In this document: positions 5,320 to 64,000 of the stretch, piece by piece
Position numbering within the stretch: position 1 is the first letter of the stretch
Layout: the number at the start of each line of letters is the position of its first letter
Assembly: GCA_003427395.1 (NCBI GenBank)
Contig: BFEA01000005.1
Coordinates: 3,515,278 to 3,579,277 of the forward strand
Reading direction: 5' to 3'
Origin: Chara braunii
Taxonomy: Eukaryota; Plantae; Charophyceae
Length of the DNA stretch: 64,000 bases
The notes under the pieces: model-generated
Seen by the model: only the letters and a program-made list of their open reading frames with translations
The model's database searches: none
What the model was told of the DNA's origin: nothing
Position numbers and translations under genes: made by a program

Positions 5320-5469
5320 TTAAGCAGAAGAAGAAAGTGGAATGGGGTTTAATGCAAGTGACATATGAGACTATTCCGATCTCTCCTATACCTAACAGTT
5401 ATTGTGATCGGACTAACTGGCTGCCGATAATTAACATGGTATTGACAAGGGAGAAAATAAACAGTCGGC

Positions 5470-5838: not shown

Positions 5839-6331
5839 TTTACTGTCTTTGATGGACTCCCCCAGCTCCTCTCTTACCTGATAGTAACCCAACGAGAGGT
5901 AATTGGTTTACAATGATAAATTTTGCATGGAAAGTGAAGAGAGTTTAAGAAGAATACTCTAAGTAGCCAGGATAACTACTGTGAGGGGCAAACTCTATGA
6001 GGTGACAGACATGATAATCCCTTTGTGATTCTGAGATATGAGACTTATGTGTGGCTTGCAAAGTTAAAGAGAAAGGTAACCTGATTACCTGGGGAAGGAA
6101 GTAAGGCAATTTGAGAGACTCCCTAACCTTTTAACTACTATTGACTTTGAGGATAGAAGAGATTGAATGTCTCTTCGAGAAGTTATTGTCGTCGTTGGTA
6201 AGGCAAGAGAGACAGACTTGACAGTAGTGTTAAAGTCTATGCTTCTTGATAATTTCGAGCATCAGTTCGAAGTCCCGGATCAGGTCTCCTTTGAGACTCG
6301 CCTCTTCTGATGATAATCATGATGATCAAGA

Positions 6332-25457: not shown

Positions 25458-25475
25458 TGGCGCCGTTGCTGGGGA
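25458..25475 (+). promoter_or_regulatory. Primer-binding site, tRNA-Asp type, of family B
   Basis: TGGCGCCGTTGCTGGGGA, 2 nt after the LTR end. Confidence 0.88.
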
Positions 25476-27447: not shown

Positions 27448-27712
27448 ATGGGGTTAATCCTGACTCGAACGACCCATCAGGGGGTTAATCATGTATGTAA
27501 AGATCCGTCAGGGGGTTAATCCTGACTCGGAAGACCCGACAGGGGGTTAATCCTGTATGAAAAGACCCGTCAGGGGGTTACTCCTGTATGGAAAGACTCG
27601 TCAGGGGGTTAATCTTGTATGGAAAGACCCGTGAGGGGGTTAATCACGTATAGAAAGACCCGTCAGGCGGTTAATCCTGACTCGAAAGACCCATAAGGGG
27701 GTTAATCCTGCC
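27448..27712. repeat. Tandem repeat, ~31-bp unit, 8-9 copies
   Basis: Unit approximately AGGGGGTTAATCCTG(ACTCG/TATGG)AAAGACCCGTC. Confidence 0.9.
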
Positions 27713-28897
27713 TTTTTCGGAAATGATAGTATCAATCAAATAGATTTCATTTTGGAACTAGTCGGAGGGCTTTCGATACCATTCTGAGAGACTAAATATT
27801 GTTTTGAGTGAACGCCAGTGGGATGATGCTAAGACCATCATGAAAAGGGTTCCCCTTAAGTTGAAGGCTTGCAAGGGCTAGACTTGGGTCCAAGTTCTGA
27901 TGGTATAGTGATGTGAATGAATTTTGTTTCATTGACGAAAAATTACAGTTTGACTCCGGGCGAATGTTTGATCTGTTGAGTATTGTAAATTTTTGTCTCA
28001 CATAGACATTTTATGAGAGTTTTAGTTTTGATGGTGAACGACGGGGATGTCGTTCAATGAGGTTCAGGAATGTTGTCGGCAAATACCTTGACATTTGTAT
28101 TTGCAGGGGATTTTAAACATCGGATGTTATTCGATTCTTTCTTTCAATTAAAGGACTTGATGAGACTGGCGTTTGCTAAAAGTTTATTCAGACTTGACCT
28201 ATGACTGAGAGACTAAAAGTTTTTGAGCTTTAATCCGGACACATGTGGCGTACAAGAGTAATGACAGTAACTGACAGTGTTTCACATTTGTCAAGGTCAC
28301 AGAAGCACGTGAACGTGAGAACGCAAAGTTAAACCTATGCTAGAGCCTAAGTAGGTTAAAAAGAATGGTCGCGACATGTATGGGGCCGCAATGTGGGAGG
28401 AATATGAAGTTTTTTTTTTTTTTTTTTGCCCGCTATCGAGAGCATCGGTCCCACGTAGTGCGGGACCCTCCCGGCCGCGTCACACAGGAGTTGGTCTAAA
28501 CTCACGATACACAAGGAGCTTCCGCAAGCCGCTCTGGCCGAGTGCGCCAACCATACCTCTCGCCAACCCTTACGACAGGATAGGGCCAACGCGAGATATA
28601 ACTTACCTCCACCTGCGAGAGTTATCACCTCCCTCCGATGGGCGTATCCCCTCCAAGCTACCAGTCCACAGTAGGAAAGTTAATCAGTTGCAATCGCAGA
28701 GGTGGACCAGCCGAGGGCGTTTCTAGTTCGTTGTAGCATAGAGGTTATGTGTGGTCCCACACCACTATCAGACCCGCATGCCAACCGACGCATTGGGGGG
28801 CTGAAGTCTCAAGCGCCATTCGTCGCCGGTCAACTAGGACGCATCTCATTCACCAGGCGTTATACCACACTTAAAACACAAAAATAAAACACACTGT

Positions 28898-28942
<45 letters not shown>

Positions 28943-29879
28943 ACGAAACAACACATAATAAAACAACGCAACCCATCCTAGTCCCTTCAGTACCCATCCC
29001 ATAACCTTCTCACGTGGAAATCGAATAAGCAACACACGGGAGACTTAATATAAAACCGCGCGGATGCAGGGTTTTCTCATATCGACTAGCAATGCATTCA
29101 AACAAAAGTAGTCGCAATGATGGCGTATTATGTAATACCCATACTCATAAGCTCCTCGTTAATCTCAAGGGTTGCATTCGACACCCAAGTGTCGGTTGAC
29201 ACGCCTTGAAGGGTTAATCTCTCGACGCTAGACAAACGTCAAGTGCGGTTGAGAACTACACGCTCTTCTACCCCCGACAGAGAGTGGGTGGTACACAGGT
29301 TCATACCTGTGGTAACAATCATCTCTTATTGCCCCGGAGACCAGCTCCATCATCCAAGGTCTGAAGAGAACTCAAGGGGTTTGACTTTGACGGCTGCCAC
29401 GGGCTACAACGTCCAACTAAAAAAAATTATAAAAAGCAAAGGATAAAGGAGGAATCTCTGTTTTCTCTCACGGCATAATCTGTTTAACCCTTATACACAG
29501 TCACAACAAGGTCATGCGAACACCTAACGTGTATGTATTTACATATATAGAGAGGATTATAAATATATGACGATCACCTCTCACAATCACCATGGGACTC
29601 CTTTCAGCACTATATATATGTATGTGATCGCGGACACTCAAATCCAAAGTCCGAAACACCAAACATACCTGCAATCACATCAAAGAATATATATTTTTTT
29701 CTCTCACGCCATAATTTGTTAAACCCTTACGCACAGTCACAATAAGCCACACGAACACCCACCACGTTTATATTTACATATATAGAGAGGATTATAAATA
29801 TGTGACGATCACCTCTCACTAAAGTCTCCTACTGACTAAGTTTAAATCCACATCTAAGCTAGTGCCAAAAAAAAGTTAG

Positions 29880-30505
29880 AATTTTAACAGAATCTTCCCT
29901 ATTTTGGATGGATCGCCAGAATCGTCACCTGTCAAAGTATAATTTGACTCCTTTAAACTAAGAAAATTTTGGCAGCGTTTCCTGTAGAAAAATTGTTTTT
30001 TCATAATTTATATTAGCCCAAATATGAAAACTGAAATAACCCTCAACTCTACAAAGTCAAATTTTGTCTAACTCCTTGAATTAGTAAAAATTTGGACAAC
30101 ATCTCTTGTGGAAAGAGACACTTTTCAGATTTATACTAAGTCAGATATGAACTCAAACATGAGACTTGAGTTCTATCAAGACAAAATCCAACTAACTCCT
30201 TAGATTTGTAGAAATTTTGGCAGTCGTTCCCGGAGAGAAAGTAGTTTTTCAAAATTTATATAAAGCTAAGTTAAGAATCTAAAAATAACTTTGACTTGTC
30301 AATCTCCAGTTTTTATCTAACTCTCTGAATTATAATTTTTTTTGGCAGCACTCCCTTTAGAAAATGAGACTTTTCATATTTTTACTAAGCAATATATAGA
30401 ATTTAAAGAAGAATTTTGGAAAACCAAAATTTGACAAACTCCTTGGTTTTGTAGAAATTTCAGCAACGCTTTTCATAGAGAAAGTAACTTACCAAGATTT
30501 ATACA
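29880..30505. repeat. Degenerate ~120-125-bp tandem repeat inside LTR C
   Basis: Recurring AACTCCTT…GAAATTTTGGCAGC…GAAA…TTTTCA..ATTTATA, about 5 copies. Confidence 0.7.
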
Positions 30506-30804
30506 AGATCAACCAAGTATAACAAATGATCCCATAAAAGATGAGAATTGACCTAAGTAAAAACATTAGCTCAGAAAATGCAAAAATTGAAGCTGACTAT
30601 TATGGATCTAGCACGTAGTGGGCATCTAACGCAACTACCTATCAACTAAAACTCAGACAAAGTAATGCTCTCATTCAGACACTTACAGAGCTAAACCACA
30701 ATAATAAGTATTGTCACTAGCCCCAAGTCAACCTGGTCAAACAATAGTTCGTAGTTTTTCAATGATTTATCCCTTATACCCAGCTTACATAAGGCGTAAA
30801 GCTA

Positions 30805-31435
30805 GACCATCCAATGTTATGGAAACCTGTATAGCTCAGGGCACTACAACTTTTTTTTTCCTTGGGCATATGACTAGGCTATCCAATCTAGTGGCCCTGA
30901 ACTGTTTAACTATGCAAGTCATATAAGGCTCATCCCGCCCCTTCTTATCACAAATTTATTCTTAATTCATACTCTCTTCAGTTGGTAATAAACTATAGTC
31001 AAACCATCCAATCTTATGGAAAAATGTCTCACTAGCTTGTTCATAAATAAATTAGTATGAAAATATAAACAAGTTTATCCCTTTGGTTCCAACATGTGCG
31101 TGGCTCCAGACCTGACCACCCAATCTTATGAGAACTTGTCCAGTCCTTCGCCTGAATTTCCCTTAGAACAAAACAAGAGAGAGTCAAAGTCATCCAATCT
31201 TATGGAACATGCTCAACTCTCTTTTCAGAAACCAATAAAACATAAAAAAACTCAAAAAAGACAAAGCAACCAAGTCATCCAATCTTATGGAAAAATGCTT
31301 GGTCCCTGAAAATCAAACAAAAACGGCGTTTGCATGTCAAAGCAATCAGACCACCAAATCTTATGAGAACCTGTTTGGTCCTTCAAGCAACCGAAAATAA
31401 ACATAGCATTGAGTCCTCCAATCTTATGGAGACTC
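30805..31435. repeat. Semi-regularly spaced CATCCAATCTTATGGA motif array inside LTR C
   Basis: About 8 copies (~30808, 30880, 31005, 31116, 31190, 31275, 31352, 31414). Confidence 0.8.
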
Positions 31436-34400
31436 TCCCGGCCTTTGGTTAACCCAGTCTACCGCACGCAATACCACCTTCCTCCCACCTTTCCCCTATA
31501 TGCAACCCCTTTTCACAATCTTCTTTCAGTCAAACAACAAAATTGAAACCGAACTTTGCACAAACATTCATTTACTTAAGTCTGGTTTGTGTCCTGAAAG
31601 TCAAACATAAAGTTAGAGTAGGGATGCAAACAGTATACTCAGTCAACCATAGGAAGAAATACAGATAGAGGTTATAACTAGATTTATAAAGGGGAAGTAA
31701 TGATTACCTCTCAGTTCCCTGCCTCCAAAACTCTTCCTTAGTTCCGACAGAGCTCCTGCAATCGGTGGGCAGACTCCCCACAGAGTCTTGTTGCGGTCCT
31801 ACGGGTTGCAATCCCGCCTGCTGCCTTCCTCTTGTAACCACATACTAGACTTAGATTAAGAAGGGCAGAAGGAGGGGTTTCAGACTCTCAAGATATAGGA
31901 GAGGGACAAACTTAACTTTCAGGAGAGGGCCTTAAAACCTTTATACTCCTGAGGGCCCCACAATGATAGTCAGGAATGTGCAACAACTTAGTCAATCAAA
32001 GTCAAACCGCTAGTTGTTGACTTCTTGACGCTCTTCTCAATTCACAGTAATACCCACCTTTCCTGAGCTTAGTCACTTTCCTATGGCTCGTGACCCGAAG
32101 TATACTGGCGACGAGTAAGTTTGCACCATCACAACTTGTCTGTTGCAGTGCAGGCTAATAGGCTGAGTGTCACACTAGCCAACAGATAGATCCGCAGTCC
32201 CCGCGACAAAACCCGATAGTATTTTCAACAATGCATACACTATGATGCTTAGTAGCACGCACAATAGCCCGTAGCAACACTTTGGTAGGCAGAATGCCCC
32301 GAGGAAGCTCCACCAAACCAACTTTGCAGAGCAACTGTAATGATCACAGCGGCCGCGACCGTAATATACTGCAACAGTTCGCACTGTCAGCTTACACAGT
32401 CGCACTAGTAGCACTCAAATTGAGAAGAGGAACAACGACACAACCTTAAAAGAGAACTCAACAGGAAATTATATAGTGATGAAAGCAACAGGACACAGTA
32501 AACCATTGTGCAACAGCAACCGAAGTGCACTTGGATATCAGTTGAGCACACTTCTGCGAAGGCCAGATACGTGCACGGCTTGATGTTGTACTTCCAACTC
32601 TCGATTCCCTTCTCTAGCCTAGACTAACTGACTAGTCGTTCCTACGCGAGCGCCCGTTCCTCTAAATGGTAATCTACAGTCACACCTTCAACTGTCATTG
32701 TGTGAGATGTCTCTAAATTTCATCGGTGGCCCCGTCTACCATGAGAGACAAAAACTGTTGTTCAGAGAGAAACCCGAGCAAAGCTTGGTCACAATCATAG
32801 TGATGCCCCAAAACACAACATTAATAGGCCATATTTACGTCAATCAGACACAGTAAGCTGACACTGTGATCTTTACGCATGACAACGTCGGGATTGTGGG
32901 CAACATGAAGATTAAGGCCCGGATCATGACCAGGGGCAGTGCAGATCCTCCACCCATGACAACGGTCGCAATTATGAGTGGGGCTCACGACTACCGGGAA
33001 CTGCCCCACCACTCACCCACTGTGCAAGCGAGAATGAATCTGTTGCTAGAGCACAGGCAGATGCATACGAAATTCACATGCTGACGAACTCTACAGCATG
33101 ACATCGAAGCTTGACTTTTTGTTTATCCTGCATCGAGAGGTCTATCAGGTAGACTTCTCCTTTCTTGCACTTAACTTGCAGTGCAGTAACCCTAGCAGGT
33201 AAGCTCTTATCCCCGCTCCCTTCTTCTTCCGCTCTCCTGATAAACAACGCATCCGCCAACAGGCAAGTTTGTAATCTTGCGGTTGGCCTCCCGATGACGA
33301 CAGTTAACCCCATACTGAGCATTGACCATGATGGTGGGTATAAGGGGCAGCGCTAGGATCTTCGATCTCAACTGTGCAATTCAATAATGAATCTTCCCCT
33401 AAAACAAGGGAAGATACATCATGCATCTTATACCAAGTGAGATTCACTCTTGGACGCTGCCGTTTTTGCCCACACCGGTTGAACTGTCGTACCAAGTCTT
33501 CATATGTTGCGGCCATCTGCTCTGCAACACCTCGAACCCCCCACGTAACTTCTTTTCTCACTCGATTCTATAAAGGAACGAGTGAGATTCCTGTTTTACA
33601 CTCCTGCTATGCCATCCTCCTGATTACCTTCGCGCAACCTTTTTCTTCATTAACTTTCTCTCTACTAACTGATTACTAAATCTGACTTTAGAATCCAGGT
33701 CGCCTGCCTCGAAAAACCCGGATTCGAGTCTTCCTTTGTCTGATTTCGTCCACAAACGAGTACGGAAATGCTCGTTTCCCCTTCTTCTTCTCCCCTTCTG
33801 CCATAACTCCGTACAATAGCTTTCTTCTCTAACTCCCTTTTTACTAACTATCTACTAAAACTGACTTCATAGTCGTGCTCCCCCGTCTAAAAAACCTCCG
33901 ACTAACACTTTGATCCGCCCGGTTTCATTTAGAGACAGGTGAGCTACACAGTTTTTAGCTTCGCCATACGTTCTCCTTCGCATTATTTACCATCTTCGAT
34001 TCTTGAACGTACCTGGTGCGAATCTGCGCCGGGTTCAGTCCATCCTTTTTACGACTTGCCTTTCCCCGTCGTTCCTCTGCCTGTCTACGCTGCTGCTGCT
34101 AGCGCAGCGCCCTGGTAGTCGCAATATCACGTTCTTACTGCCCGACAGTCCCCAGTTACTCTGCTTTCATTGTTTCATCTCCCGACCTTCCACTCACCCT
34201 TCTGACCAACGCTGCCTTCCCGACAACGTCCAACTGCGCAGCGCTCGCTTCCACGCTGGCTGGCCAGCGGTTTAACAGTCCCGACCATTCTAAGAAGAGT
34301 TCGGGGATAACCGGCTACTAGGTGGCTTGAAAGTCTTTTGCCCCGATACCCAATCCGACGAGTGGGGCGTGCAGCGCATATTGCTGTCGACCCGCTACAA

Positions 34401-36678
34401 CCTGCCCCTACTCGCTTCACTTCGCCACTACCTCAGATTCCCAATTGGCAGCTCCCATACGGATAGTCGATGCTGGGTCGAGGGCACGACTTGCTTGTAA
34501 AGCCCAAGCGTGGGCCTAGGTGAGACGACCCCGACAAAGGTCTTGGTGGTAGCAGCAAATATTAGAATGAGGACTTTGAAAACGGATGTGGAGGAGGGCC
34601 CCATGTGCACAGCCCGGCCAGACAATCCCCCTACGGACTCACCCATAATGCCTTGACCTGCTCTGCCCAGGCACTGTCCACTTCTTTTGGGTCCCGACGG
34701 GCATGCTCACACTCAAAAACCTCCCACGACAGACTACAAGGAACGGACGGCGCTCCGCAAATAGTCCCCACCATTCAGGTTCCTTCCGTCTCGTGGGCTA
34801 ATCACCCGCTAGCTCGCATGCATGTTAATCTTCCAGGTCCGTAGTTTTAAGACGGGCAAGATACATAAATTTCGTCAACATTCTCAACACACTGGAATCC
34901 GTAGGTCCGTCAAAACGAGGCGCACGCTCAAGGTCCCCGACTGCCATGACGACCCCTAATCCGATGTCGCGCCTTGTTTGAAGATCGCTGAAATATAAAA
35001 ATAATAATATTATGACAATAAATAATAAAATATTAAGAAAAAAATAATCATCCCAGAAGGACAAACGAACCCCGACTCCGCCGACGACAAAACCAAAAGG
35101 GGAATACGCCCGTCGGTCCTCAATTTTTCTGCGTCCACCACACACCTCTCCACTACTCCTACGCCATCGCCGTTGGCCTCGACCCCTGAATCTCCCTGTT
35201 GTAGGTCTGACACCGTAACCGATAGTGTTAGGCCCAAAACTGAGACTCTTACTAGTAGCTACCTATATAGGCAAATACCGCCTGGTGTGCGGATCTACTG
35301 AAACGTTTCTAAGTCACATTGTTGTCGATATCGTCCTCCGCAAGTACGTACAGATCACAGGCAAGCACGCCAATCAAGAGACAATATATTTTTAATCCTA
35401 GTTTAATCGGACATAAAAATCTGGCCGGCGACCAACACCGGTTTTCACAATCATCAAAGGGAGAAGAGATCACGAGCGCCTTAAGTCTGCGCGCCCACAC
35501 ACTCTCTACCCTAGTCAACCATCCTGCCAACGTAAACAATGGATACCATTGCAACTTGCGTGGTGTTCCAGACTTTTTAAACTAACTATTTTTTGTCACT
35601 TGCAAAACCCAGGGCGGATACCCTTGTAAGGGTATTCGCTCCGACACCGCGGGGGTTGACCTCGAGCCAAGGGAGGGGCCAGCAGGCCGATGCCGAGGCC
35701 TACCTGTTGGGTGACCCCGAAGCGATGGATAGACAGCCATCCACGGGAAAGCGGCAGACAAGCACGACCTGCAAGGACACAGGCAGGAGGCCTACTGGTG
35801 CAACCCTTCAAATAGACAAGGGTTGCTGCTATAGCTTCCGTACTAGGAGGTAGCCTTGTAGGTATTGCACTGAACTACCACTCGACAAAGACCAGAATTG
35901 AGCCCAGGCTACGCGAACACTGGGCTAGCTCCTTTTGGAGCTGCCTCACTTTGCAGATGGTGCGGTCCATCTCGACCGTGTGATCACAAAGATCATACGG
36001 CCGAGATAGGCCGCGTGGATTGCATAGCCCGTGCGCAAGGATGACAAACATAAATTGAGAAATGGGCCGAATTTTTTGAAACTTGGGTCTTTGAGAAGTT
36101 TGTGGGTTTACCACGAACGAGATGAATGTCAACATAAGCCAACAAGGAAAAAAAAAAAAAAAAAAAAACTAACACCAGAAAGCGTCATATGGCACACTTT
36201 GAAGTAATAGGGAGTTAGACCTCCCCGCGGACAGCACAAGCGTCCGAAGTAACGGGCAACCGTTTTCTTAGAAAGGTAAGTTTTGTTTTTATTTTGTTTT
36301 TGTTTTTTGTTTTTTTAGATTTTCTTCTTTCAGATTTGCTTTATATATATATTTTTTAGATTTCCTTTTTTGATTCGGTATTTTCTTTTTAGATTTTGAT
36401 CTTATTAGTAGTGCCCGTTCGTTTCTACGAACGGGCTGAGTACTTCCTTTACAGATGAGCAAAATCGAATAAATCTACCACGGAAGTGCGGCTACGTTCC
36501 GGGCGTGGGTTTTGGGACCCTGTACTTGAGTTACGAGGGACTCTCTGCACACGTTTGGGTGGTTTCCAGTTGATAGGGACAGGCGAGTCGTTTTCTGGTG
36601 GTCGAACGAACATTTTTGCTGCACCGTTCGGGTCTGTTTTTCTCGAACGGCTGTCACGACACTAGCAATAGGCGCGAC

Positions 36679-37144: not shown

Positions 37145-40100
37145 TGTAGGGAGTGATGGGACTGCGTCTGCTCGTTTTTGAACAGGCTGCAGTCTGGCTG
37201 GGTACAACCATTCCCTGGAGCATGTGGCCTGCGGGGAAGGCCAGATGCCTCCGGGAATGGAAGGTTCTAGTTCCCCGAGGGGAACATCAATGATTCTGAC
37301 CCTTGATGGTAGGTCCGAATCAAGGGCTCAGAACAACTACGTTTTTTTGGTTGTGGGCAAAGCAGCTAGCCACATGCCTTCGGCTGGTTATAAAAGCCAG
37401 CTCCCCACCCAGCAGCCTCACACTTGTGATAGTGCTGCTGGGCCATTCACTTGAGTGAATGCTGGTTGGCTGCTACTGTGGGGCGGTGCTGCCGGAAAGA
37501 AAGGAGACGAAGTGTTGTTGGAGAGGAGAGTAGTGGTCTGCAGGATAAGAGGAGGTGCTGCTGGTGGAGAGCTGGAGGTCTCCAAGATGAAGGGGGACGC
37601 TGCCGGAGGAGTGCGGGCAGCGCAGCCATAGCGAAGGGTTGGAGGCTCCCTGCCCCAACCTCGCGCTGGTGATGTGGCGGTGAGGTTGTGCTAAGGGTCA
37701 GCAGCGTGGCAAGGCATACCTTATTTTGTGGGGTTATGCCGCAGAGATTTCGACACGACGGCAACATGGTGGGGGAGATGATGTCGGACTGTCGCCGTAG
37801 CGTCAAGATCTTCCTAAGGGAAGGTGCTGTCGGATTTGTCGTGCACCGCCGATGTCTTTTTTAATCTGAGTGTGGGGAGGTGTTGTTCGATCATCGGCAC
37901 GGCAACGGCAGTGTATCCGGTAGGGTTACGCTGCCGAAATTTTGACTCGGCCGCAATTTTTCTTTGGGGGAAGTACTCTTCGTTCGACGGCATGATAACC
38001 GCAACGTATTCAGCAAGACAGTTATGTTGTCGAATTTACGGCGCGGCGAGGGACAATTCCGCTTTTATTTTTTGTGGTGCACAGCGGTTGTGGTGGATTC
38101 CAATGTGACCTAGAGGTTGGGCTGGCACTAGTGCACATTTGGGATCGTGCGGCAGTGGTGTGTGGGCCGACGGCATGAAGAAAGTGCAAAGTGAGTACAC
38201 ACCGTAGTGATTATTGGGCACACGGTACATGCAATTTTGAGCCAAGGCCACCTTTATTTTTTTTGCAGCGCGCGGTGTGACTTGTTTCTAGTTTTTGACC
38301 ATCCGGTATTGAGAACGATGGTATGGGACTGCATTGGGACCATCTTGGACCATTTTGGGACTAGGTGGGGCTGTTTTTTTTAATCAGAACGGGCGTGTTA
38401 GTGTGGCTATTGTGAGCGGGCATGGTGATGAGAGGGGGTTGGACTTGTGCTTAGGTTGGAACTATCCTTGGTGGACGAGGTGTCGTTGGGACTGTAGTGG
38501 GGCCATGTAGGACTTGTAAGTGAGAACACCCTCCTCGAGGGCTATCTCGGTTCGGTCCTTGTGGGTGGCCGCTAAATGTCCTTGTGGATACTTGAGGAGG
38601 ACATAAACCATCATTGGTAGTCAGCCATAACTTATGACTTGTGCGACTGATCTCTTTAGGAGTATTACCTCAACTTTCTTGAGTGAGCCGGATCAAAACT
38701 TCACTCAAGGTCAGTTGGTTGACTCAGACTTCCTTTCACACATGTGTGAACCCACACTTTGTTTGACCTTGTTCGCTTTCGACGTTCAAAATAGAAGGTA
38801 GAGGAAAGTTGTACAACTCATGTGTGTGAGTGAAAAAGTATGACTTGAGTATGAAATTGTACTAGTTTCTTTTGAACTTGTTGTTTTTGCGTGTTATCCA
38901 GGTAGGTAGAAGAATGTTTGCAAAGGAGATTGTTTATGCTTATTTGAGATGAAGAAAATGATTGTCCTCTTCCTATCTTTCACTTGCCTGCATGACAAAA
39001 GTACTTGAATTTTGAAGTGAATAATTTCAACGGGTGTCGTGAAAAAAAAATTATAAACATAATGAGGATGAAGATAATCACACTTATTTTTTTTCCAATG
39101 ATTTACCTTTCTAACCCGAATGACCTTATCTACCTGTACTTGTCCAAATGGTTCTCGTTCTCTATCACCTCTGTTTCTTTTTGTCTAGGTTACCCTGAAG
39201 TTAGGAGATGTGAGAATAACTGAAAACTACTCGAAGTGAACACATTCTATTTCTGTAGGGAGCATCTGGGGCGGGGGTTCGTTACTTTAGGAGGTGGCCC
39301 CGTTATCGATCCAGAGTGGACCATTCTACGGGGGGGTACTCTGCCGATTCGGTGGAGACTACCCGACTTCTTATATTCGAGTCTTCTGCTCAGGCGAGGA
39401 GGAGGAGTACCCCATTCCACTTCCTAGAGGGAGAGGCATGCAACACTTCAAGCAATGCACCTGATCAAGAATCATTCACAAAACAATTTGTCATCCAAGA
39501 AAGATTGGAAGCGTATGAAGACGAGTGTGTGCGTGCTGAATCTTAGTTTGATGATAGGTTGGAATGAATGACTTTGGCAGTGTGTCTCATCAAGTCAAAA
39601 CTAAGGCAGCCGATTACCTTGTCGGTTGCATGAATATGATTGTCGGTAGCCAACTCCTTGTTGGCGGTTGTTTGATTTTTTTGTAGTATTTGACCTAAGA
39701 GGGTTAGATTTCGTTTTGATATTATATTGTTGGATGTGTTAAATTATGATCAGAGTTCTTTTTGTTATCATTTCAGATTGGCTATATGTTCCTGTTCACT
39801 ACGGTCGATTCCTTATGATGTAAATATATGTGGATGTTATAATGTTTTTTTGGTTATATGTTTAAGGGACTAGGACTAATATTTGTAGTTTCATACTTGG
39901 TTGAGACCGTCCTAGTCGACCGACGTTTGCTTCGTACTTAGAAGATTAGCGCCCTTAGAAACGGACGACGTTCGGGTCCACTTGACATTAACCAAGCGTA
40001 TCTATATTACAGCGAACGAGCAAACACCCTCGACTGACCTACCTCTGCAATTGCATTTTAAAACTTTCGTATGTGGGTCAACAACTCGATAGGGATACGT

Positions 40101-40365
40101 CCCTAAGGGCGGTGACAACCCCTTAGGGAAGGCAAGATGTGCCCTGCGGGAACCTATCTTGTTGTAGGGGACTGGGGGAAGTACAGCTGACGCACCTGGC
40201 TAGAGCGGCGAAGGGACGATGCGCCTGCCACCGTCTAGACGGTTCGCGGGATGTTATGCATCGTTCCCAAGTTGTCTCCGTGATTTTGTTTTGTTTTACT
40301 CCTACGTGACATGGCCGGGAGGGTTCCCTTGCTTTGTAAAAAGATGGGAGTCGATGCGCTCCACA
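37145..40365 (+). repeat. LTR B2 (either a solo LTR or the 3' LTR of element B)
   Basis: 3' 2.1 kb homologous to B1, ending …GCGCTCCACA. Putative start TGTAGGG follows a purine-rich tract. Flanks are AGGT / ACGT. The 5' boundary is uncertain. Confidence 0.65.
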
Positions 40366-40585: not shown

Positions 40586-40859
40586 CCAGTACGAGAGGCT
40601 AAAGTTGTTGTCACCACTAAGGTCCCCTCCCCAAACACAACACGATCAGAGTCTAGCCACCCACACTCACATAGCAAGTTTGTCAAGAATGAGAGAAGGT
40701 TAACAACCGGAGTTACTGACGTCGCCCTGCGGGCCATCCGCCAGCAGTGCTGCTCACGCCACAGTTCTACATGGCGAAGAAAATGTGAGGTCCAACCTCC
40801 TCCATCTTCAGTTGGTTACAATGTTCCCCTGCTCAAAGCCGTTCTCAAATGTTCAAACT

Positions 40860-41405
40860 CAAGACTGGTCGTCTCGCAAAGTGCTGGAGGGGCCCGTTGC
40901 AGGAGTGTTGGAGACCGGGGCTAGCGAGTATCAATGTCATGCTTCGGAGGGTGCGTCCGTCGACTTTGAGAGCAAGAGTACAGTAGTTCCGGGGGAAGAG
41001 GAGGTGCATGATGTGCAACGAGAAGAGGAGACTCAACACTGGCCGCCTCCCAAAGTGTTGGAGGGGCCCGCTGCAGGAGTGTCGGAGATCGGGGCTACCG
41101 AGCATCAATGTCATGCTTCAGAGGGTGCGTCCGTCAACTTTGAGAGCAAGAGTACAGCAGCTCCGAGGGAAGAGGAACTCTCACAGGAAGCGCGTGCTGT
41201 GCAGTGGAAAGAAGAGACTGAACACTGGCCGCCTCGCAAAGTGCTGGAGGGGCTCGATGCAGGAGTGTTGGAGACCGGGGGCTAGCGAGCATCAATATCA
41301 TGCTTCGGAGGGTGCGTCCATCGACTTTGAGAGCAAGAGTACGACAGCTCCGGGGGAAGAGGAACTCTCACAGGAAGCGCATGTTGTGCAGAGGGAAGAG
41401 GAGCT
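40860..41405. repeat. Three ~175-190-bp tandem repeats
   Basis: CTGGCCGCCTCGCAAAGTGCTGGAGGGG…GACTTTGAGAGCAAGAGTAC at ~40865, 41039 and 41225. Confidence 0.9.
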
Positions 41406-42663: not shown

Positions 42664-42700
42664 CTGTCTCTTATACACATCTAGATGTGTATAAGAGACA
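42664..42700. other. Nextera mate-pair junction adapter (assembly artefact)
   Basis: CTGTCTCTTATACACATCT followed by AGATGTGTATAAGAGACA (back-to-back Tn5 mosaic ends), ~95 nt from an N gap at 42533..42569. Confidence 0.97.
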
Positions 42701-49624: not shown

Positions 49625-52600
49625 CGTACACTTACTCTGGAACTGCACCCATATTAGCATATAATGAGAATGTGCCTTCCGCTAAGATACGGGAAAGTAT
49701 ATCAAAGTCTCATGCAGAGGGTCGTGCAAGCACCAATCTCCAAATGTGTAAAATGTGAATGAACCTTCCACTCGAATGTGGCCAGGTGCAACCCCTCGAT
49801 GACCACTCACATCGAAAGGGGTGGTATTGGGACGACATAATTAGTAACAAGTGAGGAAAAGCAGCGAACAGGATGAACAGAAAGTGCGACAATGATCACG
49901 AGGAGTAAATTCCGCGAAGACGGCTAGCACGACGGGCATGGCCAGCATGAACACCCTCACGACGACCTCCCCGCGAAGATTGGCCGACACCACAACGAAC
50001 TTTCCTCATGAAGTCCTCCTAAAGCGAGTATACACGTTTCATCTCCTCTACTAACCTCCTTTCCCCCTCTCCCTTGTCAAACCGGGCTCTACGCCCGCGG
50101 TCGTACTTACCAAACGTAAAAAAGTGAGAACGAATTTACCGCTCGAACATAGCCAAATGCATCTCCTATTTCCCTACAGCTCCTATCGCCTTCTGTAAGG
50201 TACGTACTCTGCCCCCTCACACTCTTGTTTTCCTACATGCTCCCTCATCTCCCTCTTTGATCATCACCTTCATCTTCTTCTCCTCACCTTCGACTCTTTC
50301 ACTTCCTTCTCAATCCCTTTCTGTCAAGCCAGTTCCTAAGTCGACCGCAGCTTAATACGCTGACACTAAGCAATCCGATGCTCAAGTGCCAAATCCGGCC
50401 CACGCATTCGACTCGCAGCATGTCAAAACCCAAAAATTGAGTCTTCATCCACTCGATTATGTCAAGAAACAGACGAGGTATGAGTTAACTCCCTTGCCAT
50501 ATCTCTATTCCTAACATCTCGGCGCACACCTTTTTTCCTCCAACTCCTATCTTACTAATTTTCTACTAAAACTAACATCAAATTTGGGCTCGCCATAGCC
50601 CAAAACCTCGGATTTGAGTCTTCACTCGCCCGTTTCCTTCTTCCTCTGACCATCATCTTCGTCTCCACTTTTAAATGCACCTAGGGTGGGTCTGCGCCTA
50701 GGTTGATTCGAACTTCCTGACCCCTTCATGCTCCTCCCGCTTGTTTGATCGTCCTCCGCTTCGCTGCTTGGTCTCCAGTTCATTCCTACCTTACCTTACC
50801 TACTCCAAGCCTTAGCACACTCTCTGAAGTAGGAGAACCGGGGTGAAGATCAACACCGTCATGATAATAGGCGCAATGCTACTACCACAATTAGCAACAC
50901 CGTGGTCACAACGAGAGCCCATCTGCCAGTGATTCACCTGCGGCCCCGATCTCAGAAGCCTCCTCGAACTTGACGACAAGGTCATGCACCGCCATGATAA
51001 TCTTTAGTCCGCCTTCTTCCTCATCATCGTCTTCCCTCCGTCCTTTTAATCCAACCGTTGACGACACTTGTCACCTGGTTGGCACCGAACCGCGCGCTCA
51101 CCCAGACACCACGAAGGGTGTTGACTGATATAGGCGGCAACCCGGTGGTCATGGAAATCGAAACCTGCTAAGGAGTGTGTTAACAACTCACCTGGCGAGT
51201 CGGTCAATCCCCGAAATGCAGATGGCACTGGGGCGTGCGGCCTCGGTCGTCGTGGTGATTTTTTATGTAACAACAAGTACCCAGACGCAACTCTTGCTGC
51301 AAACCCTTCAGCGTGCGCCCAGGTGAAGGCGGTCTCAATGCAAATCTTGGTGGTACCAGCGATTTTTCAAATGGGAACTTTGAAGACCCAAGTGAAAAAG
51401 GGTTCCCTATGATCGGTTGCTGCCTCCGCCTTGGTGCCCCCTGGTCCTCGCCCAAGCATAGTCCACCATCTCACGGGTCTCAGTGGGCATGCTCACACTC
51501 AAACCTCTCACAGCAGATCGTGGTTGGCGGACGGTGCACCCGCAGAGGGCCCATGCCACCAAGGTTTCATCCGCCATGTGGGTTAATCACCCACCGGTTT
51601 GTGCGCACGCTGAAATCCTCAATCCATGTTTCAAGACGAGCAAGATAGAGGAGTTTCGCCAACATCCCGAATACACAGGGACCTGAGCGGGGCCATCAAT
51701 AAAAGTGCGTGCTCACTGTCCTCGACTGCCATGGCGACCACTTCGCGGAGATTGCAACCGCCAGCCCCTTCACCCCACGCTGGCTGGCACCCCGCAAACA
51801 GCCTTAGTACCGATGATGGTGCCGCGTCCTAAAAATGAGACTGGCAAGAAAAATAAAAATACAAGGAAGAAAAAAATAAAAATACAAGCATCGGGAACTG
51901 GTGCTTTGGGGAAGGGAGACTATAGACGCCCCCTCTTAGCTCCATCGACGGGGGCCCACAGATGGGCCCACAACAAAAACCAAAGGGAATAACCCGTTGG
52001 GCCCTCAACCCCTTGACATCTTCAACCACTCCAATGCTCCATCCTCGCTGGTCGCCGCCCTCGATCCTCGTACCTCCTCCTTGAAAGTCCAATGCCGGAG
52101 GCCCATAGCTGAGTCTAGCACTAACGGAAACCCAAGAAAGGGGCACTGCTACGCATGTAGGTCCGCTAGACACTCCAATATCTCTTTTTGCACCTACCGA
52201 CTAACCCCACGACCGTCAAGCCCTGCGCCTACCGCGCGACGGCCCCGCCTGTCTTACGCTCCCATTACTGTCCAAGGGCAACATTGTCGTCGACGTCGTT
52301 CTCCCGCATAAGCACACGCACGTCTTGGTCAGAACAACAAAAAGAAAAACGCTTAGTCTTATTTTAATCAAAGTTAGAAGTTTGGTCGGTGAAACACAGA
52401 CTCTATAACATCAATAAGAACAACGTCATGCGCGCCTTAAAACTGCGCGCCCACACACTCTCTACTTCTAGTCAACCATTTAGTCAACGTGAACAAAACA
52501 CAATCGAGACTCGCATGGTGTATTCAAATTTTGAACAAAACTTATTTTATGTCACTTGCAAAAACCAGGGCGGATACCCTTGTAAGGGTACTTGCCGACA
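49625..52600 (-). repeat. Truncated LTR E, a diverged relative of the 5' part of LTR C
   Basis: 52425..52600 matches 35470..35646, including the terminus …GGATACCCTTGTAAGGGTA…CCGACA; patchy similarity further inside. Confidence 0.75.
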
Positions 52601-57289: not shown

Positions 57290-57925
57290 GTACGGAGTTC
57301 GTCTGTCCACTTCATCCACAAAAAAGGACTCGGGCAACGGGAAGACTGTTGAGGGACCCGGTCAAGGCAACCCATTGGTGAGCAATGGACCTGAGACATG
57401 AACGATGGGTCTACATTAAGGACCGTACGAAGGACGACACCTCAATTGGGTGGAAATGGGAAAGAATTGAGGAACCAAACTTGGGGACGCGCCCCCTGAA
57501 CATGGAGGACGTCTGTCCACTTCATCCACAAAAAGGACTCGGGCAACGGGGAGACTGTTGAGGGACCCGGTCAAGGCAACCCATTGGCGGGCAGTGGACC
57601 CGGAACATGAACGATGGGTCTACACCGAGGACCGTATGAAGGATGACAGCTCAATTGGGTGGAAATAGGAAAGAATTTGGGAACCAGACTTGGGGACACG
57701 CCCCCCGAACACGGAGTACGTCTGTCCACTTCATCCACAAAAAAGGATTCAGGCAACGGGGAGAATGTTGAGGGACCCGGTCAAGGCAACCCATTGGCGA
57801 GCAGTGGACCCGGGACATGAACGATGGGTCTACATTGAGGACCGTACGAAGGACGACAGCTCAATTGAGTGGAAATGGGAATGAATTGGGAAACCAGACT
57901 TGGGGATGCGCCCCCCGAACACATG
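57290..57925. repeat. Three ~210-bp tandem repeats within the LINE ORF1 region
   Basis: GTCTGTCCACTTCATCCACAAAAAAGGA at 57301, 57511 and ~57720. Confidence 0.93.
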
Positions 57926-59568
57926 GACCCCCCCAACTCCGGTGGAGGAGACGGTACGAGAAACACCAGTGAGCCTCCTGTAGGGGAGCACGAAAAACCC
58001 AGGCTGGAAGACGGTGGGGAAAAAAGGAGGGAAAGAAATCTGGGTTAAAAAATAACAGGCGGAACCCGGGCCGTCGAGGGACGATAACAACTGCCCCCAC
58101 GGTGTCCCAGGCCCCACTGCTAGGCGGTAAATTCGGGAAGAGGAAGATGCAGATGACACCGGGGTCAAAAGGAAGCAACTCACCCACTCGGAGCAAATGC
58201 AACAGAACGGGACTGAGGTTACAAGGGGAAAGAGCATAAAGGAATGAGAGTTATCAATGTAAGAGGAGGCCACATACAGCCCCTCCAAACAGTTGGGACA
58301 AGAGGGAGCAAAGGGACAGTCGGAGGGACAAATGGAGGTGAGGGGTATGGAGGTGGAGTCCGGGCCGCTGGGAGTGGAGAATTCAGAGCAGCCTAAGGGG
58401 AGAGCAGAGGGAAACCTCTAGGTGGGCCATACGATAGACACCGACCCCTTTCAGGCGGCTTTTAATTCGGAACCTATGGACATTGACCCTCTTCTGGTCA
58501 ACGTCAGCATGTCACCAGAGGGCCTGGTCCCGGAAAGAGACCCGGAAGGTAAGGAGGAAGGGGCGCCGCCGCTGCACCTGCCCACGGAACAAAAACTGGT
58601 CGTTATTGCAAACTGGTTAACGCGGAATTTGAAAGCAAAACACGGCCCCCTCACTGACGACTTCTGGGATAAGACATGGAATTATTCCCCATGCTCGACA
58701 CGAGCGCCTCGCTAAAAAACGTACTAGAAAATTGATTGCAATCCGGGGTGAGGTGGAAGGAAGCATGACACTGATTGACGACAATTGTGTTGGCACATTT
58801 TCAACCACCACACGCTGCAGCAACAAAAGAAGCAAAGCAGGACAGAGCCCAAGCTGCGACAGAGAATGGAAAGGACCAAGGATCACATGAACCCCTGGTG
58901 CTGCAGCAACCAGCCCCCCCGCCGGGCCCGGACCCTCCGGACCTCATGAGAACGCGCCACTAGACCTAGTGCGAAAAATAAAGCTTAGACAACTGGTTGA
59001 GATGGGCCGCGATTTAGGCCCCCTGTCGTCGGAAGCCATGCTGCTCATCGCAGTTCGGAAGAAAAATGAAAAATGGGAGGTGGGCTTGTCTCCGGAGGGG
59101 AATGGCCAACAGGGGAGGGTCGCGTTACAAGGTTGATCGTCGTTTTGGGCAAACACACCAACTAGCCAGTCTGAGGCTGCGGCAAAAATTCTGCAAATAC
59201 AACTGGAATCCCACATTGTAGAATCTCTACCGCCAGGGGCACAGGCCATGGCTTCGATCACAACCGGCCCCAGAAAAATCGCGTAGAGGGATGTCTACAT
59301 ATCTTTCGACCCAACCAAGGAGGCAGGTTTGAGATGGCACACCCACACCCAACTGCTGAACCTGCAAATGGTTAAGATCAGGCACAACGACACCTGGACT
59401 GAACAGGATGTCCAAAGATGCTTATGTGCTCTTCTCAGACTGGGCCAAGACTAGGACTGGGATCAGTTGACATGGAGCCGCCTCAGATTTGCATCCTGAA
59501 ACACTCTGATGATTATAAAATGAGGGTAATATGAACAACTCGAGTACGACCCGGTCAAAGCAGTATAC

Positions 59569-61413
59569 GTGAAGGACCGTTTCTGGAACCAATGCAGGAA
59601 GGCAACGAACCTAGACTTACGCTCCTTGAATGTGAACGGTCTGGCCTCGTGCAAACCGGAGAAACAAAACGCAATCTGGGATTTAATGAGAGGAGTGGGG
59701 GATAGGCATTGGCCGGATATAGTGTGCGTCCAGGAAACACACCTGATGGACACCCCCGAGCACAACTTCATCCACAAAATGATCTGGCCGTATAAGGTCT
59801 TCAGGGCCCATGCCCCAAAACCTGGAAGCGCAGGGGTGGCCATCTAGATTCCCCTTGAGTCACAGGCAGACCCGGTACACTGGGTGGTGGACCAGGATAG
59901 AGGTCGATGGGTGTCGATCCTCGTTATGCAGGAACTTGAAATTGTATATATACTGTGCATCTATGCCCCCAACACCGTAAGCGAGAGAACAACTTTCTTT
60001 GAGAGCATTAAAACGCAAACCCTGAATGTGGTTTCGGTCATTATAGCATGAGACTGCAATGGAGCCTCATACCGATGGATGGACAGATGGCGGACGCCCT
60101 CCAAAGCCCCGGTGCATGTGGAGGAGGATGAACGGATAATCAACGATCTATGTCTTTCACTAAATGTCTTCGATTCCTTTCGGAGGCTAAGCCCAGATAC
60201 AAGTTTCTACTCATGTTTAAGGAAAACTGAAACTGAGAGTCAGTCGAGATCCCGGATCGACTTAATCTTGATCTCAAAAGACATGGGGGGATCTCTGCTT
60301 CTGGCAGCGTTTCTGCCCACTAGCCCCTACCCGGGCCTTGATCACAAAATGTGCACGATCATTTTGTCCTTTCGTAAGAAACCGATCGTGGACCTAGTTT
60401 TTACAAACTTAAGACCCCTACCTTGTAGCAGAAAACCTTTTAGAGTTACATTACGGACTGCTAGACGTGCTGGCATATGCAAAAGCAATACTTTCAACAT
60501 AAAATAGACTAGTTTAACAACGGATTGTTCTACCTAGGTAAAAAATGTCAAGAATATTTCAAACTTTTGGCAGTAAGGAAGTATCAACAGGAGATGGAAA
60601 TACACCAACAAGTGCAGAAACTTAAACACCAGGATCAGTGTGACAGTGTCCAACATCTACAACCAACAGAACATTATGAGATACAAACGCTACGACGACT
60701 TCATACCTTCGCCACACAACGTTGGGGACGTACACGGATAAGAGGACGACTGACAAGGCATCAAACAGAAGGAACAATGGACAAAAAAATATTTAGCATG
60801 GCCCGTGTACGTTCACACAGAACAACCATCGAGCCGCTATACGATCCGCAAACCAGACACCAAGATATCATCGCCGCCTCCTCTCATGCACGCAGATAGC
60901 AAGATCTTTCTTCCAGAACCTGTTCACATCAACGTGCCCGACAAGAAAGGAACCAGGGAGAAAGAAATTTGGGACTTCTTAAAACCAATCGGACAAGACC
61001 CGGACATGACAGTAGAGAACAAATCTGGATCGCCCCCTCTCTAAGGAGGAAATCAGGCCGGTGATGATGTAAATGGAGGAGGAGAAGACACCGAACATTG
61101 ATGGGCTTTTAAAGGAATTATGAGATATTTTCTCGACTCAGATGGCCCCAAACCTCATGGAGTTTTATCGGCAGGTGTGGGAAACAGGGCGGATGGGGGA
61201 GTTGGTGGGGCAGGGCGTTCTCACATTTTTGCACAAAAAAGGAGACAAGATTGATGTTCGGAACTATCGGTGAATAACCTTGCTTACAGTCGTGTATAAA
61301 AATTAATAAAATGTTAGCGAAAGCCTGAAAAACAGACCAATCCCGGTTTTGGACGATATTATCCATCTGACACAAACCGGGTTTATAAAAGAGAACAGGA
61401 TTCAGGATAACGT
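59569..61413 (+). pseudogene. LINE ORF2: AP endonuclease and start of RT
   Basis: SLNVNGL, VCVQETH, AGVAI, IYAPN, SRIDLILIS, DHK; then LHKKGDK…NYR*ITLL…YKI and QTGFIKENRIQDNV. Confidence 0.92.
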
Positions 61414-64000
61414 TGTCACGCGCGGCGGTCCCACTCCCAGACGCAAAGTAAAATTTTGTGTCGGACCTCAGGGTCGTGTCACGCAGGAGTCTTTTTGTCA
61501 GTTCAATGAAAACACCACTCCGACCGTGCGCGCGTGCTATACCTTTCGCGACTCCCTACGACAGGTTAGGGATCCCGCGAGGTACAACATACCTCCACAT
61601 GCGGGAGTTGTCACCATCCCTTAGGTGAGCGTATCCCTGCTGAGCTACTGACCCACGTGCGAAGGTTTTTACATGCAATCGTAGAGGTAGGTCAGCCGAG
61701 GGCGTTTTCTCGATCGCCGTAGCATAGGCATACGCGTGGTAGAACGCCTTAAGACTGACCCGTATATCGTGCCCCGAGGTGCTAACTTCCCCGAACCGAC
61801 TATCTAATCAGGTCGACCTTTCCGGACAGTTTTCCACGCTTAGTTAACTAGGACAATGACTTTATGTCTCCTTTGTTAACCTTATGTGAAAAGCCAGAGT
61901 CAAGCCCCTTTGTTATCTCTCATTCTCAAAAGAATCCTAGACGAATGACTTCCTAAGCTCTAACGAGCTTACGATCTCATTCACATATATATATATAACT
62001 GTGTATGTAAGTCAGGGGAGCTGAATGAGCGGCACACCTCAAATTCACAATTGCGGTGTCCGTGTCCGAATATCCCAGACGATCCCAAATTCAGAAGACA
62101 GTTCAATGCCCAACACCTGTGCAGATGCAAGAAATCACATACAAACATACAAATGCAGACACAGAATGCGCTACAAGCATCAACCTTTAAACCATTCATA
62201 GCAAGTCTCTCACGCCCCAAAACCTTGAAAACAACATTCCTTCCTAAACCTGACTCCCTTTACCCCAACCCTTCACATTTTCAAAGACCTCCGAGTGTGA
62301 TTTGGACAATTTAGGCATAGATACAGGGGAAGATCCATCTGTTTCCTTCTTAGGTCTTGTCTTAAGTGTGGGCATCAAGCCATGTGGAAGTTGAGTCGGA
62401 ATTTTACTGACCTGGTATCCAATGATAACAAAATTTGCAGTTCCTTACGGTTCTTCCGTAGTCCTCTCCAAGCGAGATGAACCTGTAAACACACCACAGT
62501 CTGAAAGAATCTTAACATCCTCTCTCCGATGTTACGATCTAGAAAACCTCTTCTAGACCTGTGACCCAAATTCGGTGCTCATCGTCGACCTACCGCCTAA
62601 CTTCTATCATGATCAAACTTCCAGTCCACTGCCCTGTTGGTCTAGGCAATGAACAGAATTCATTCCCAACCCCTTCGTTACAGCGGTTCTACTTAGTTCT
62701 CTTTTTAACAGGTTAACTACAAACCTCATGCCTTTAGTAATCCCAAGCAATACCCTCCATTCAACTCAGAGAGGAATCTCATGATGAAGATCAAATCAGA
62801 ATCTCAAAGGGCAATAAGTCTCTCTGGTAAAAATCTCACCTATCATTTCCTCCCTAGAATCAGATATTAGTGAGTTAGCAATGGATTGAATCATTTATAT
62901 AGAAGTAGATATTCGGTGATAGATTGATCAGGATACACTTAAACTTTTGTTAGTATCAGGCTTTGAGAGAAGATGATGATAAGGCAGGATTCTTAGAGCC
63001 TAGCTCCTCTTACCACCTAATATATATTGTTAATATGGTGATAAGGCAGGCTCCTTAGAGCCTCGCTTCTCTTATCGCTTAGTATATAGTATTACGGTGG
63101 TAAGGCAGGCTTCCCGGAGCCTCGCTCCTCTTACCACCTAGTATGTACGTTAATATGGCGATAAGGCAGACTTCTTAGAGCCTCGCTTCTCTTATCGCCT
63201 AATATATAGTATTACGGTGGTAAGGCAGCCTTCCCGGAACCTCGCTCCTCTTACCACCTAGTATGTATGTTAATATGACGATAAGGCAGACTTCTTAGAG
63301 CTTCGCTTCTCTTATCGCCGAGTATATAGTATTACGGTGGTAGGGCAGGCTTCCCGGAGCCTCACTCCTCTTACCACCTAGTATATATGTTAATATGGCA
63401 ATAAGGTAGGCTTTCTAGAGCCTCGCTTCTCTTCTCGCCTAGTATATAGTATTACGGTGATAAAGCAGGTTTCCCGGAGCCTCGCTCCTCTTACCACCTA
63501 GTATATATGTTAATATGGCGATAAAGCAGACTTCTTAGAGCCTCGCTTCTCTTATCGCCCAATATTTAGTATTAGGTGGAAGGGCAGGCTTCCTCGAGTC
63601 CCGCTCTTCTTACCACCTAGTATATATGTTAATATGGTGATAAGGCAGACTTCCTAGAGCCTCGCTTCTCTTATCGCCTAGTATATAGTATTACAGTGGT
63701 AAAGCAGGCTTCCCGGAGCCTCGCTCCTCTTACCACCTAGTATATATGTTAATATGGCGATAAGGCAGGCTTCTTTAGAGCCTCGCTTCTCTTATCGCCT
63801 AGTATATAATAGTATAACGGTAGTAGGGCGGACATCCCGGACCCTCGCTCCTCTTACCACCTAGTATATATGTTAGTATGGCGATAAGGCAGGCTTCCTA
63901 GAGCCTCACTTCTCTTATCGCCTAATATATAGTATTACGGTGGTAAGGCAGGCTTCCTGGAGCCTCGCTCCTCTTACCACCTAGTATATATGTTAATATG
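61414..64000 (-). repeat. 3' end of an LTR (family D, minus strand) inserted in the LINE; extends beyond the window
   Basis: Abrupt switch to TGTCACGC after ACGT; shares the TCCTGCGTGACA motif and the ~200-nt module with LTRs B and C. Confidence 0.85.
62975..64000. repeat. Higher-order tandem array: ~60-bp hairpin units alternating A/B (~119-bp dimer), about 17 units
   Basis: A = GGCGATAAGGCAG(A/G)CTTCTTAGAGCCTCGCTTCTCTTATCGCC; B = GGTGGTAAGGCAGGCTTCCCGGAGCCTCGCTCCTCTTACCACC. Confidence 0.95.

Follow-up and report, generated by a model that had tools for sequence, protein, structure and literature searches.

The stretch of the Chara braunii genome analysed here (64,000 nucleotides of contig BFEA01000005.1, positions 3,515,278 to 3,579,277, hereafter the window) is a nest of transposable elements, and one long terminal repeat (LTR) within it, LTR D, contains a tandem array of predicted bulged hairpins with two alternating stem types. 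The unit of this array is a real, family-wide and probably selected structural repeat. As to its role, it is tentatively proposed that the array would offer, in the sense RNA, multivalent docking to Gag or to an accessory protein of the element, an explanation to which we give somewhat less than an even chance. The features on which the argument rests are the following, in window coordinates.

61414..64000, minus strand: 3' part of LTR D, assigned from its 3' end (..GTGACA) at 61414 and from homology to other LTRs
62975..64000, minus strand: tandem array of at least 17 bulged-hairpin units, alternately B (61 bp) and A (59 bp), from Tandem Repeats Finder (TRF) and unit alignment
63880..63922, minus strand: example of an A hairpin (unit 16), with a 9-bp stem, 4-nt bulge, 2 bp, 1-nt bulge and 5 bp; hexaloop CUAGGA (sense)
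63939..63981, minus strand: example of a B hairpin (unit 17), of the same build; hexaloop CCAGGA

At 62973-64000, TRF resolves 17.0 copies of period 61 (73% matches) or 8.5 copies of period 120 (87%), and the unit alignment gives nine B units and eight A units, forming a 120-bp dimer, in agreement with the first-pass annotation, made on the letters alone, which had described about 17 alternating hairpins of about 60 bp. Since the array is cut by the window end, 17 units are a minimum; its start lies 1,561 bases upstream of the LTR D 3' end. The outer arms are GGCGATAAG/CTTATCGCC in A units and GGTGGTAAG/CTTACCACC in B units, and the inner AGGCT/AGCCT stem, the differing loops and the AT-rich linkers between units are as had been described. 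The build of the hairpin had been only partly captured: the outer and inner stems stand, but a 2-bp middle stem and the two bulges, of 4 nt and 1 nt, had been overlooked. The predicted sense hairpin begins with an outer stem of 9 bp, above which come a purine bulge of 4 nt (AGRA), the 2-bp middle stem, a single bulged G, an inner stem of 5 bp and a hexaloop closed by a U-A pair. The bulged single base is G in 15 of the 17 units, loop position 1 is C in all 17, position 5 is G in 16 and the sixth base is A (G in one unit); the loop triplets are UAA, UAG, CGG and CAG, with CCGGGA being the hexaloop of six of the nine B units. The stems are less uniform than had been supposed, the consensus arms being correct but both outer arms perfect in only 6 of the 17 units, and the first unit being a degenerate A/B hybrid. 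Over the whole array, pairing on the minus strand is kept in 93.8% of the 272 stem cells, compared with 30-53% in slid controls; 10 of the 17 units fold at z below -2 (dinucleotide shuffles), and the fold of 991 array bases reaches z -7.9, as judged from 20 shuffles.

The earlier observation that both outer arms change together at two positions was confirmed. A and B differ at 8 of the 43 hairpin positions, four of them in stems (two compensated pairs), three in the loop and one in a bulge, and the chance of eight randomly placed differences falling in this way is small (P about 0.0005).

Further indications of selection come from the family as a whole. Contigs from two DNA runs of one study (X1 and X2, possibly the window's own sample) were placed on two stretches, and one dimer carries 879 and 884 distinct contigs in X1 and X2, so that the array, with about 880 distinct contigs on one dimer, is not unique to this copy. 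Summed depth, which does not equal copy number, reaches 58,000 and 86,000 on the dimer, against 10-13 for unique pieces; allowing for up to 31-fold contig overlap, we infer that the genome holds hundreds to thousands of units. The LTR stretch beside the array (62520-62946) is covered at 80-1,200, and the hairpin bin at 26,600 and 45,400. Counting all those listed on the dimer, 27 variants reach 2% in some run. With X1 and X2 averaged, a minor variant reaches at least 10% at none of the 64 stem sites, at 3 of the 22 sites in loops and bulges and at 4 of the 34 linker sites, the stems thus differing from all unpaired sites taken together (0/64 vs 7/56, Fisher p 0.004); when the threshold is at least 2%, the comparison is 7 of 64 stem sites with 7 of 22 loop or bulge sites (p 0.04). 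In six of these seven stem variants the sense strand retains a G-U pair where the opposite strand has a mismatch (p 0.125), and this tolerance of G-U on the sense strand points to RNA. In the loop, the C, G and A at positions 1, 5 and 6 are free of variants at 2%, variation in the B loop being confined to positions 2-4, where it is 24-40%, and the commonest B-loop letters across the family spell CCGAGA (unphased).

The hairpin also persists in other surroundings. Several contigs carry B-type hairpins head to tail through an unrelated 19-20-nt linker. One contig has the arm CTTATCACC followed by GGTGATAAG, a candidate third arm pair with one of the two compensations; if real, it means that the two compensations arose separately, which a single arm-copying event would not explain. 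Furthermore, a separate array occurs in a sister LTR.

30787..31453, minus strand: eight dispersed hairpins in sister LTR C (about 28434-35646, minus strand), from loop recurrence, folding and RNAalifold

In these hairpins the loop is UAAGAU in six of the eight, and they have a 4-bp upper stem, a bulge on the 5' side and unrelated, covarying lower stems. RNAalifold gives 12 pairs on the sense strand, 8 of them with double changes, against 4 pairs and 1 double change on the other strand; its covariation term is slightly unfavourable, the lower stems aligning poorly. All eight fold better on the sense strand. Taking into account that the array recurs beyond this copy, that stems are spared by common variants, that the hairpin is kept with a different linker and that an array exists in a sister LTR, the early proposal that structure was selected before the dimer was amplified is supported.

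As a separate observation, the pentamer TAAGA (sense) is found at the D stem-bulge junction, in the A loops, in the C loops and in the other linker of the monomer-type family members, and it may be a sequence read by protein. It occurs 20 times on the sense strand and 0 times on the antisense strand of the D array, the corresponding counts in the C array being 8 and 0.

A number of observations weigh against selected function. The covarying pairs are only 2 of the 16, and represent two events copied many times. Of the distinct variants in the present copy, 28 fall in the stems (64 sites), 9 in the loops or bulges (22 sites) and 9 in the linkers (34 sites); none is compensated, 14 of the stem variants giving G-U on the sense strand, 8 on the other strand and 6 a pair broken on both (p 0.29), and hairpin energies do not differ between the plus and minus strands of the D array (p 0.11). 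It had been expected that variants would break pairing below the neutral rate, and within this copy this does not hold, the stems being mutated as often as the loops and without compensation. The variant pattern of this copy fits mutation after insertion, and neither supports nor excludes earlier selection. In the family, depth on the B slot exceeds that on the A slot about 2.6-fold and B-only arrays exist, so the alternation is not obligatory. It has to be noted that the family counts are unphased, that rare variants were dropped and divergent ends clipped, and that cross-mapping between slots is possible, so that the constancy of the stems may be overstated; the variable B loop holds a CpG, and the linker variation of the A slot may itself be cross-mapping. 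As for the sister array, most of the length of LTRs B, C and F gives a better fold in the sense direction, which makes the strand result for LTR C partly one of composition. The C and D arrays have their build and TAAGA in common, but their sequences are not alignable and their loops differ, and a scan for loops recurring three or more times found no such array in LTRs A, B, E and F.

The RNA data stand mostly on the same side. In the poly(A) RNA run X6, 369 reads fall on 61300-63100 and 34 on the dimer, 7 of which span a dimer junction, and these dimer reads count in favour of the docking proposal; run X5 has 8 reads on the 1.8 kb and 0 in the array bins, and run X7, which was uninformative, has 0 on the dimer. 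First mates are mostly minus (20 vs 8 at the peak), a pattern that would indicate antisense RNA if the library has the direction of most stranded ones. No RNA splice joint is listed for the poly(A) runs on 61300-63100, and the idea that the array lies in an intron and marks unspliced RNA is therefore unsupported. The family is nearly silent in the sampled RNA, and the data do not confirm a sense transcript.

Many of these points are what would be expected of a neutral hypervariable repeat, in which strand-transfer errors multiplied a single hairpin in tandem, template switching kept its two arms complementary and the array spread as a passenger. This explanation we consider unlikely, but one to be taken seriously. 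Template switching is able to create compensated pairs without selection (PMC8794818; this and the other papers cited are drawn on in part), which also counts against the docking proposal, and tandem arrays are common in large Ty3/gypsy elements, where they have been ascribed to strand-transfer errors (PMC7004042, PMC6317226). The neutral-looking variants of this copy, the presence of only two phased covarying pairs and the distances between dimers (about 12 of 120 bases), which are star-like and without positional trend, agree with it as well. It does not readily account for the asymmetric bulges and for loop positions 1, 5 and 6 being kept at at least 93% despite replaced linkers; the copying of arms would tend to erase bulges, the adjoining stretch 62520-62946 is 20- to 300-fold shallower than the hairpin, and LTR C holds a separate array of different sequence.

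Folding models bear on what the alternation might do. On the native sense strand, the probability that a unit forms its own stem is 0.79 with a pairing span of 70, 0.41 with 150, 0.17 with 300 and 0.15 when unlimited, and the pairing between units that prevails in the full array at equilibrium is a further point against docking by single hairpins. Control arrays were built from two pairs of real units, with alternating or identical stems and either linker. When the stems alternate, the own-stem probability is 0.50-0.61 at span 150 and 0.25 at 300; with identical stems it falls to 0.00 and 0.00-0.04, respectively, and the linkers make no difference. According to these models, alternation would protect local folding, and the unit hairpins would need co-transcriptional folding or a bound protein.

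Pairing between units at equilibrium suits a different role, as a source of small RNAs or a decoy for them, in which long imperfect inter-unit duplexes would be cut by Dicer-like enzymes and tune the silencing of the family; Sirevirus palindromes are hotspots of small interfering RNAs (siRNAs) (PMC4728375). Even in the global fold, however, the longest uninterrupted helix is 9 bp, and alternation reduces the very duplexes required, so that this role is improbable and the suggestion of a small-RNA precursor in the first-pass annotation is, as judged from the modelled fold, doubtful. A precursor of the microRNA (miRNA) or hairpin RNA (hpRNA) type was rejected on its fold, each unit having 16 bp with two bulges. 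Such precursors form a near-continuous duplex of about 21 bp, from which defined small RNAs arise.

A cruciform was another of the functions suggested, and a structure of single-stranded DNA, with a role in the chromosome or in reverse transcription, can be considered together with it. The outer arms are exact inverted repeats in 6 of the 17 units, and the hairpins, modelled as DNA, average about -8 to -9 kcal/mol on either strand. These 9-bp arms surround a bulged interior of 25 nt, the asymmetric bulges can stack only on one strand and the G-U bias favours RNA. With arms so short and bulged, a cruciform is unlikely, and as an explanation of the array we regard it as hardly credible. Among the three functions originally put forward, the protein-binding scaffold would fit best.

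The placement of the array in the element was approached through the boundaries and homologies of LTR D, and the claim that the array lies inside an LTR holds, given the terminus at 61414 and the homology to LTRs B and C; LTR D is on the minus strand.

61515..61740, minus strand: conserved box near the LTR D 3' end, 73-76% identical to LTR families B and C and with the deepest contig coverage
56300..61413, plus strand: decayed long interspersed nuclear element (LINE), host of the LTR D insertion; its reverse transcriptase (RT)-like frame stops at the LTR edge, and its left boundary is approximate

There is a sequence break at 61414, where LTR D begins abruptly (TGTCAC) and the RT-like frame of the LINE stops. 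The box matches, reversed, the 3' part of LTR B, and matches LTR C in the same orientation. The copy of LTR B ends near 25455 and is followed by a primer-binding-site motif at 25458 on the plus strand, and because the box of LTR D is homologous to this end, LTR D is placed on the minus strand. At its 3' end LTR D thus shows a TG...CA-type terminus and is homologous to an LTR with a primer-binding site after it. No primer-binding site follows the LTR D 3' end itself, so it is a 3' or a solo LTR, and it likely belongs to a Ty3/gypsy-type element, whose gag-pol, paired LTR and target-site duplication would lie, like the other end of LTR D, beyond 64000 and outside the window. This box of about 200 nt is the sole part common to families B, C and D (61515-61740, 28529-28741, 24600-24776 and 39991-40169); its summed contig depth is 150,000-257,000, and it may be a conserved RNA element of U5.

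In LTR B, the TATA box lies 735 bases from the LTR start and about 3 kb from the 3' end. By analogy, the D array would sit in R/U5, probably downstream of the promoter. A possible promoter signal in LTR D itself has to be set against this.

62894..62902, minus strand: TATA-like motif, following the array in the sense direction at a distance of about 70 bases; contig coverage here is thin

With this motif downstream, placement of the array in U3 remains a candidate, a further point against docking in RNA, and the array could be a DNA enhancer, a dimeric transcription factor recognising its inverted half-sites a short way upstream of the motif, in the manner of Sireviruses. GATAAG, found in the array, presumably resembles the plant I-box. 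In favour of this reading, Sirevirus LTRs average 7.3 palindromes in their cis-regulatory half (PMC4728375). Against it, few family contigs cover the stretch with the TATA-like motif, the TATA of LTR B, an LTR with the 3' box in common, is far from the 3' end, and a DNA-binding factor needs neither the joint change of both half-sites nor an inner bulged stem tolerant of G-U. An enhancer is, on balance, distinctly unlikely in LTR D.

It has also been considered that the array could control splicing or polyadenylation, the donor-like G|GUAAG of the B units recruiting the U1 small nuclear ribonucleoprotein (snRNP) and shielding a very long leader from premature cleavage or splicing. Protection by U1 is known from retroviral leaders. 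In sense orientation the array has nine copies of GGTAAG, against 0 in the remaining 1,561 bases of LTR D, and most of the family's units are of the B type. The 9-bp stem, however, encloses the motif, its GU is lost in A units, the LTR C hairpins are without it and the poly(A) runs show no splice joint, all of which makes a U1 decoy highly improbable.

Returning to the docking site, the following course of events can be envisaged. The units would have been multiplied by slippage or strand transfer during reverse transcription. The sense RNA would be the folded strand, in which alternating A and B stems may limit pairing between neighbours, so that nascent hairpins survive; the docking of protein would then mark the RNA of the element for export or packaging. 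Selection would have acted in active lineages, the present copy now being in decay. A broader proposal, which we hold to be rather unlikely, is that each Chara gypsy family has its own LTR RNA barcode, a row of bulged stem-loops read by an element-encoded protein in a circuit like those of the trans-activation response element (TAR) and the Rev response element (RRE); in D, this barcode would be in the course of rebuilding by tandem duplication, and two poorly cross-pairing stems would have been selected to alternate for folding unit by unit. Varied stems are used by design in engineered RNA-tagging cassettes, and the alternation in D would be a natural version of them.

With regard to a partner protein, LTR D contains a second family-conserved block.

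62093..62458, minus strand: block of LTR D that is likewise conserved in the family, flanked by splice-acceptor-like sites picked out by eye

Its broken frames are rich in Cys and His, and a small exon encoded by the LTR is one possible reading of it. A Pfam search with three frames of 62060-62499 returned no match to suggest an LTR-encoded partner, and tblastn found no protein-level homology between LTR D and the other LTRs outside the 3' box.

To our knowledge, how plant gypsy elements select their own RNA for export or packaging is largely unknown. A short unit that is repeated at least 17 times, recurs in many copies across the genome and is not the same in sister families offers an easy handle on this process, single hairpins being open to structure probing and binding tests, and the genome provides a large natural set of variants for covariation analysis. 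If the alternation has been selected, it shows how repeated RNA signals avoid mis-pairing; if it is neutral, it cautions that tandem repeats may acquire compensated pairs without function.

The rest of the window contributes several observations in its own right. Element A is the only element in it in which the order of proteins was seen (protease, RT and RNase H, PR-RT-RH); its RT fragment is Ty3-type, and 120 of the 120 matches listed for it are Chara braunii proteins, with a best identity of 79%. An open reading frame (ORF) in both LTRs of this element (3677-4234 and 21627-22163, plus strand) is 31-34% similar to two decayed frames (5050-5862) just past its primer-binding site, these together forming a paralog series that reaches into the LTR. 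The decayed LINE that hosts LTR D has weak endonuclease matches at 59530-60504 (PF03372, E 0.004; PF14529, E 0.002), both under the curated cut-off. A fragment of eukaryotic large-subunit ribosomal RNA (LSU rRNA; RF02543, E 2.6e-24) is found at 51081-51243 (plus strand) inside LTR F, antisense to its inferred sense, and an LSU-rRNA-like piece was seen by eye in LTR C near 34545-34610, so a captured rRNA module may be common to these LTR families. Other tandem arrays are located at 27435-27710 (31 bp x 9), 40857-41403 (174-187 bp x 3) and 57292-57922 (210 bp x 3, in the LINE). A palindromic stretch at 42668-42700, beside an N gap and with an adjoining 98-bp duplicate, is a likely assembly artefact; it resembles a library junction adaptor.

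In the comparison with known systems, searches for relatives gave little. Rfam on 61400-64000 returned nothing at E below 1 and three matches at E 1.4-2.4, far below gathering scores, and in the whole window its only match at the gathering threshold is the LSU rRNA piece, with no hammerhead or retrozyme core. An exact 22-nt degenerate pattern of the unit has 0 matches in viral contigs; two single matches in metagenome contigs were rejected as chance, as they have neither a second unit nor LTR homology. A search of titles and the starts of abstracts, with genome-paper supplements and most subscription papers outside its scope, found no description of such an array. A TAR-like element of human immunodeficiency virus type 1 (HIV-1) was rejected, D being a tandem of at least 17 units with purine bulges and without an Rfam hit at E below 1. 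TAR has a pyrimidine bulge and is present in a single copy at the 5' end of the transcript.

The loop itself has closer parallels. Like the pseudotriloop hairpins (HIV-1 TAR, epsilon of hepatitis B virus, the foamy-virus 5' hairpin and the iron-responsive element, IRE), the D unit is a bulged stem-loop with a C-N-N-N-G-N hexaloop and a possible C-G pair across the loop (PMC3884659, PMC8466369), the latter being what the pseudotriloop rules ask for (PMC3884659). The 3' pyrimidine bulge and the G-C closing pair of the same rules are absent from D, whose sixth base is A and whose closing pair is U-A; the sixth A, with a run of purines on the 3' side, is shared with TAR and pyrR (PMC3884659), and the stacked hexaloop proposed for these two is as likely for D as a pseudotriloop. 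With the IRE, D shares a five-pair upper helix above a single bulged base, but the bulged C and AGU triplet of the IRE (PMC8466369) are absent from its units, in which the bulged base is G in 15 of the 17, and there is no Rfam match. Unlike the pseudotriloop systems, which in the parts of these papers considered are single elements, D has at least 17 hairpins in tandem, with a closing U-A, a bulged G, a purine bulge of 4 nt and a variable triloop.

Among LTR retrotransposons, the LTRs of the Sireviruses (Ty1/copia), such as maize Ji and Opie, carry 17-bp perfect palindromes at four loci in the upstream cis-regulatory half, where they are siRNA hotspots (PMC4728375). LTR D resembles this region in having several hairpin-forming inverted repeats in variable copy number, and in a structure common to families of divergent sequence, and differs from it in that its units are bulged stem-loops of 43 nt and unrelated sequence, in a strict head-to-tail dimer with compensated pairs, in a gypsy-type element. 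In the Ogre/Tat elements (Ty3/gypsy), tandem arrays lie in the 3' untranslated region between pol and the 3' LTR (PMC7004042, PMC6317226). D is like them in having short tandem arrays, probably derived from strand-transfer errors, in very large gypsy elements with LTRs of several kb, and unlike them in that its array is inside the LTR and composed of covarying hairpins, the Ogre/Tat descriptions, in the parts considered, being without conserved structure.

As regards function, the closest parallels are non-coding, cis-acting RNAs of LTR elements, such as the constitutive transport element (CTE), the transport element of MusD (MTE) and the MER11 CTE, with an LTR-derived export element of about 1 kb known in a primate retrovirus (PMC11379458), and the packaging domain of Ty1 (PMC6844567, PMC5454406). 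Function has been shown in those elements and is proposed here for D, and none of them is described, in the parts of these papers considered, as a tandem of hairpins of identical build. In sum, the D array would work like these systems while being a member of none of them.

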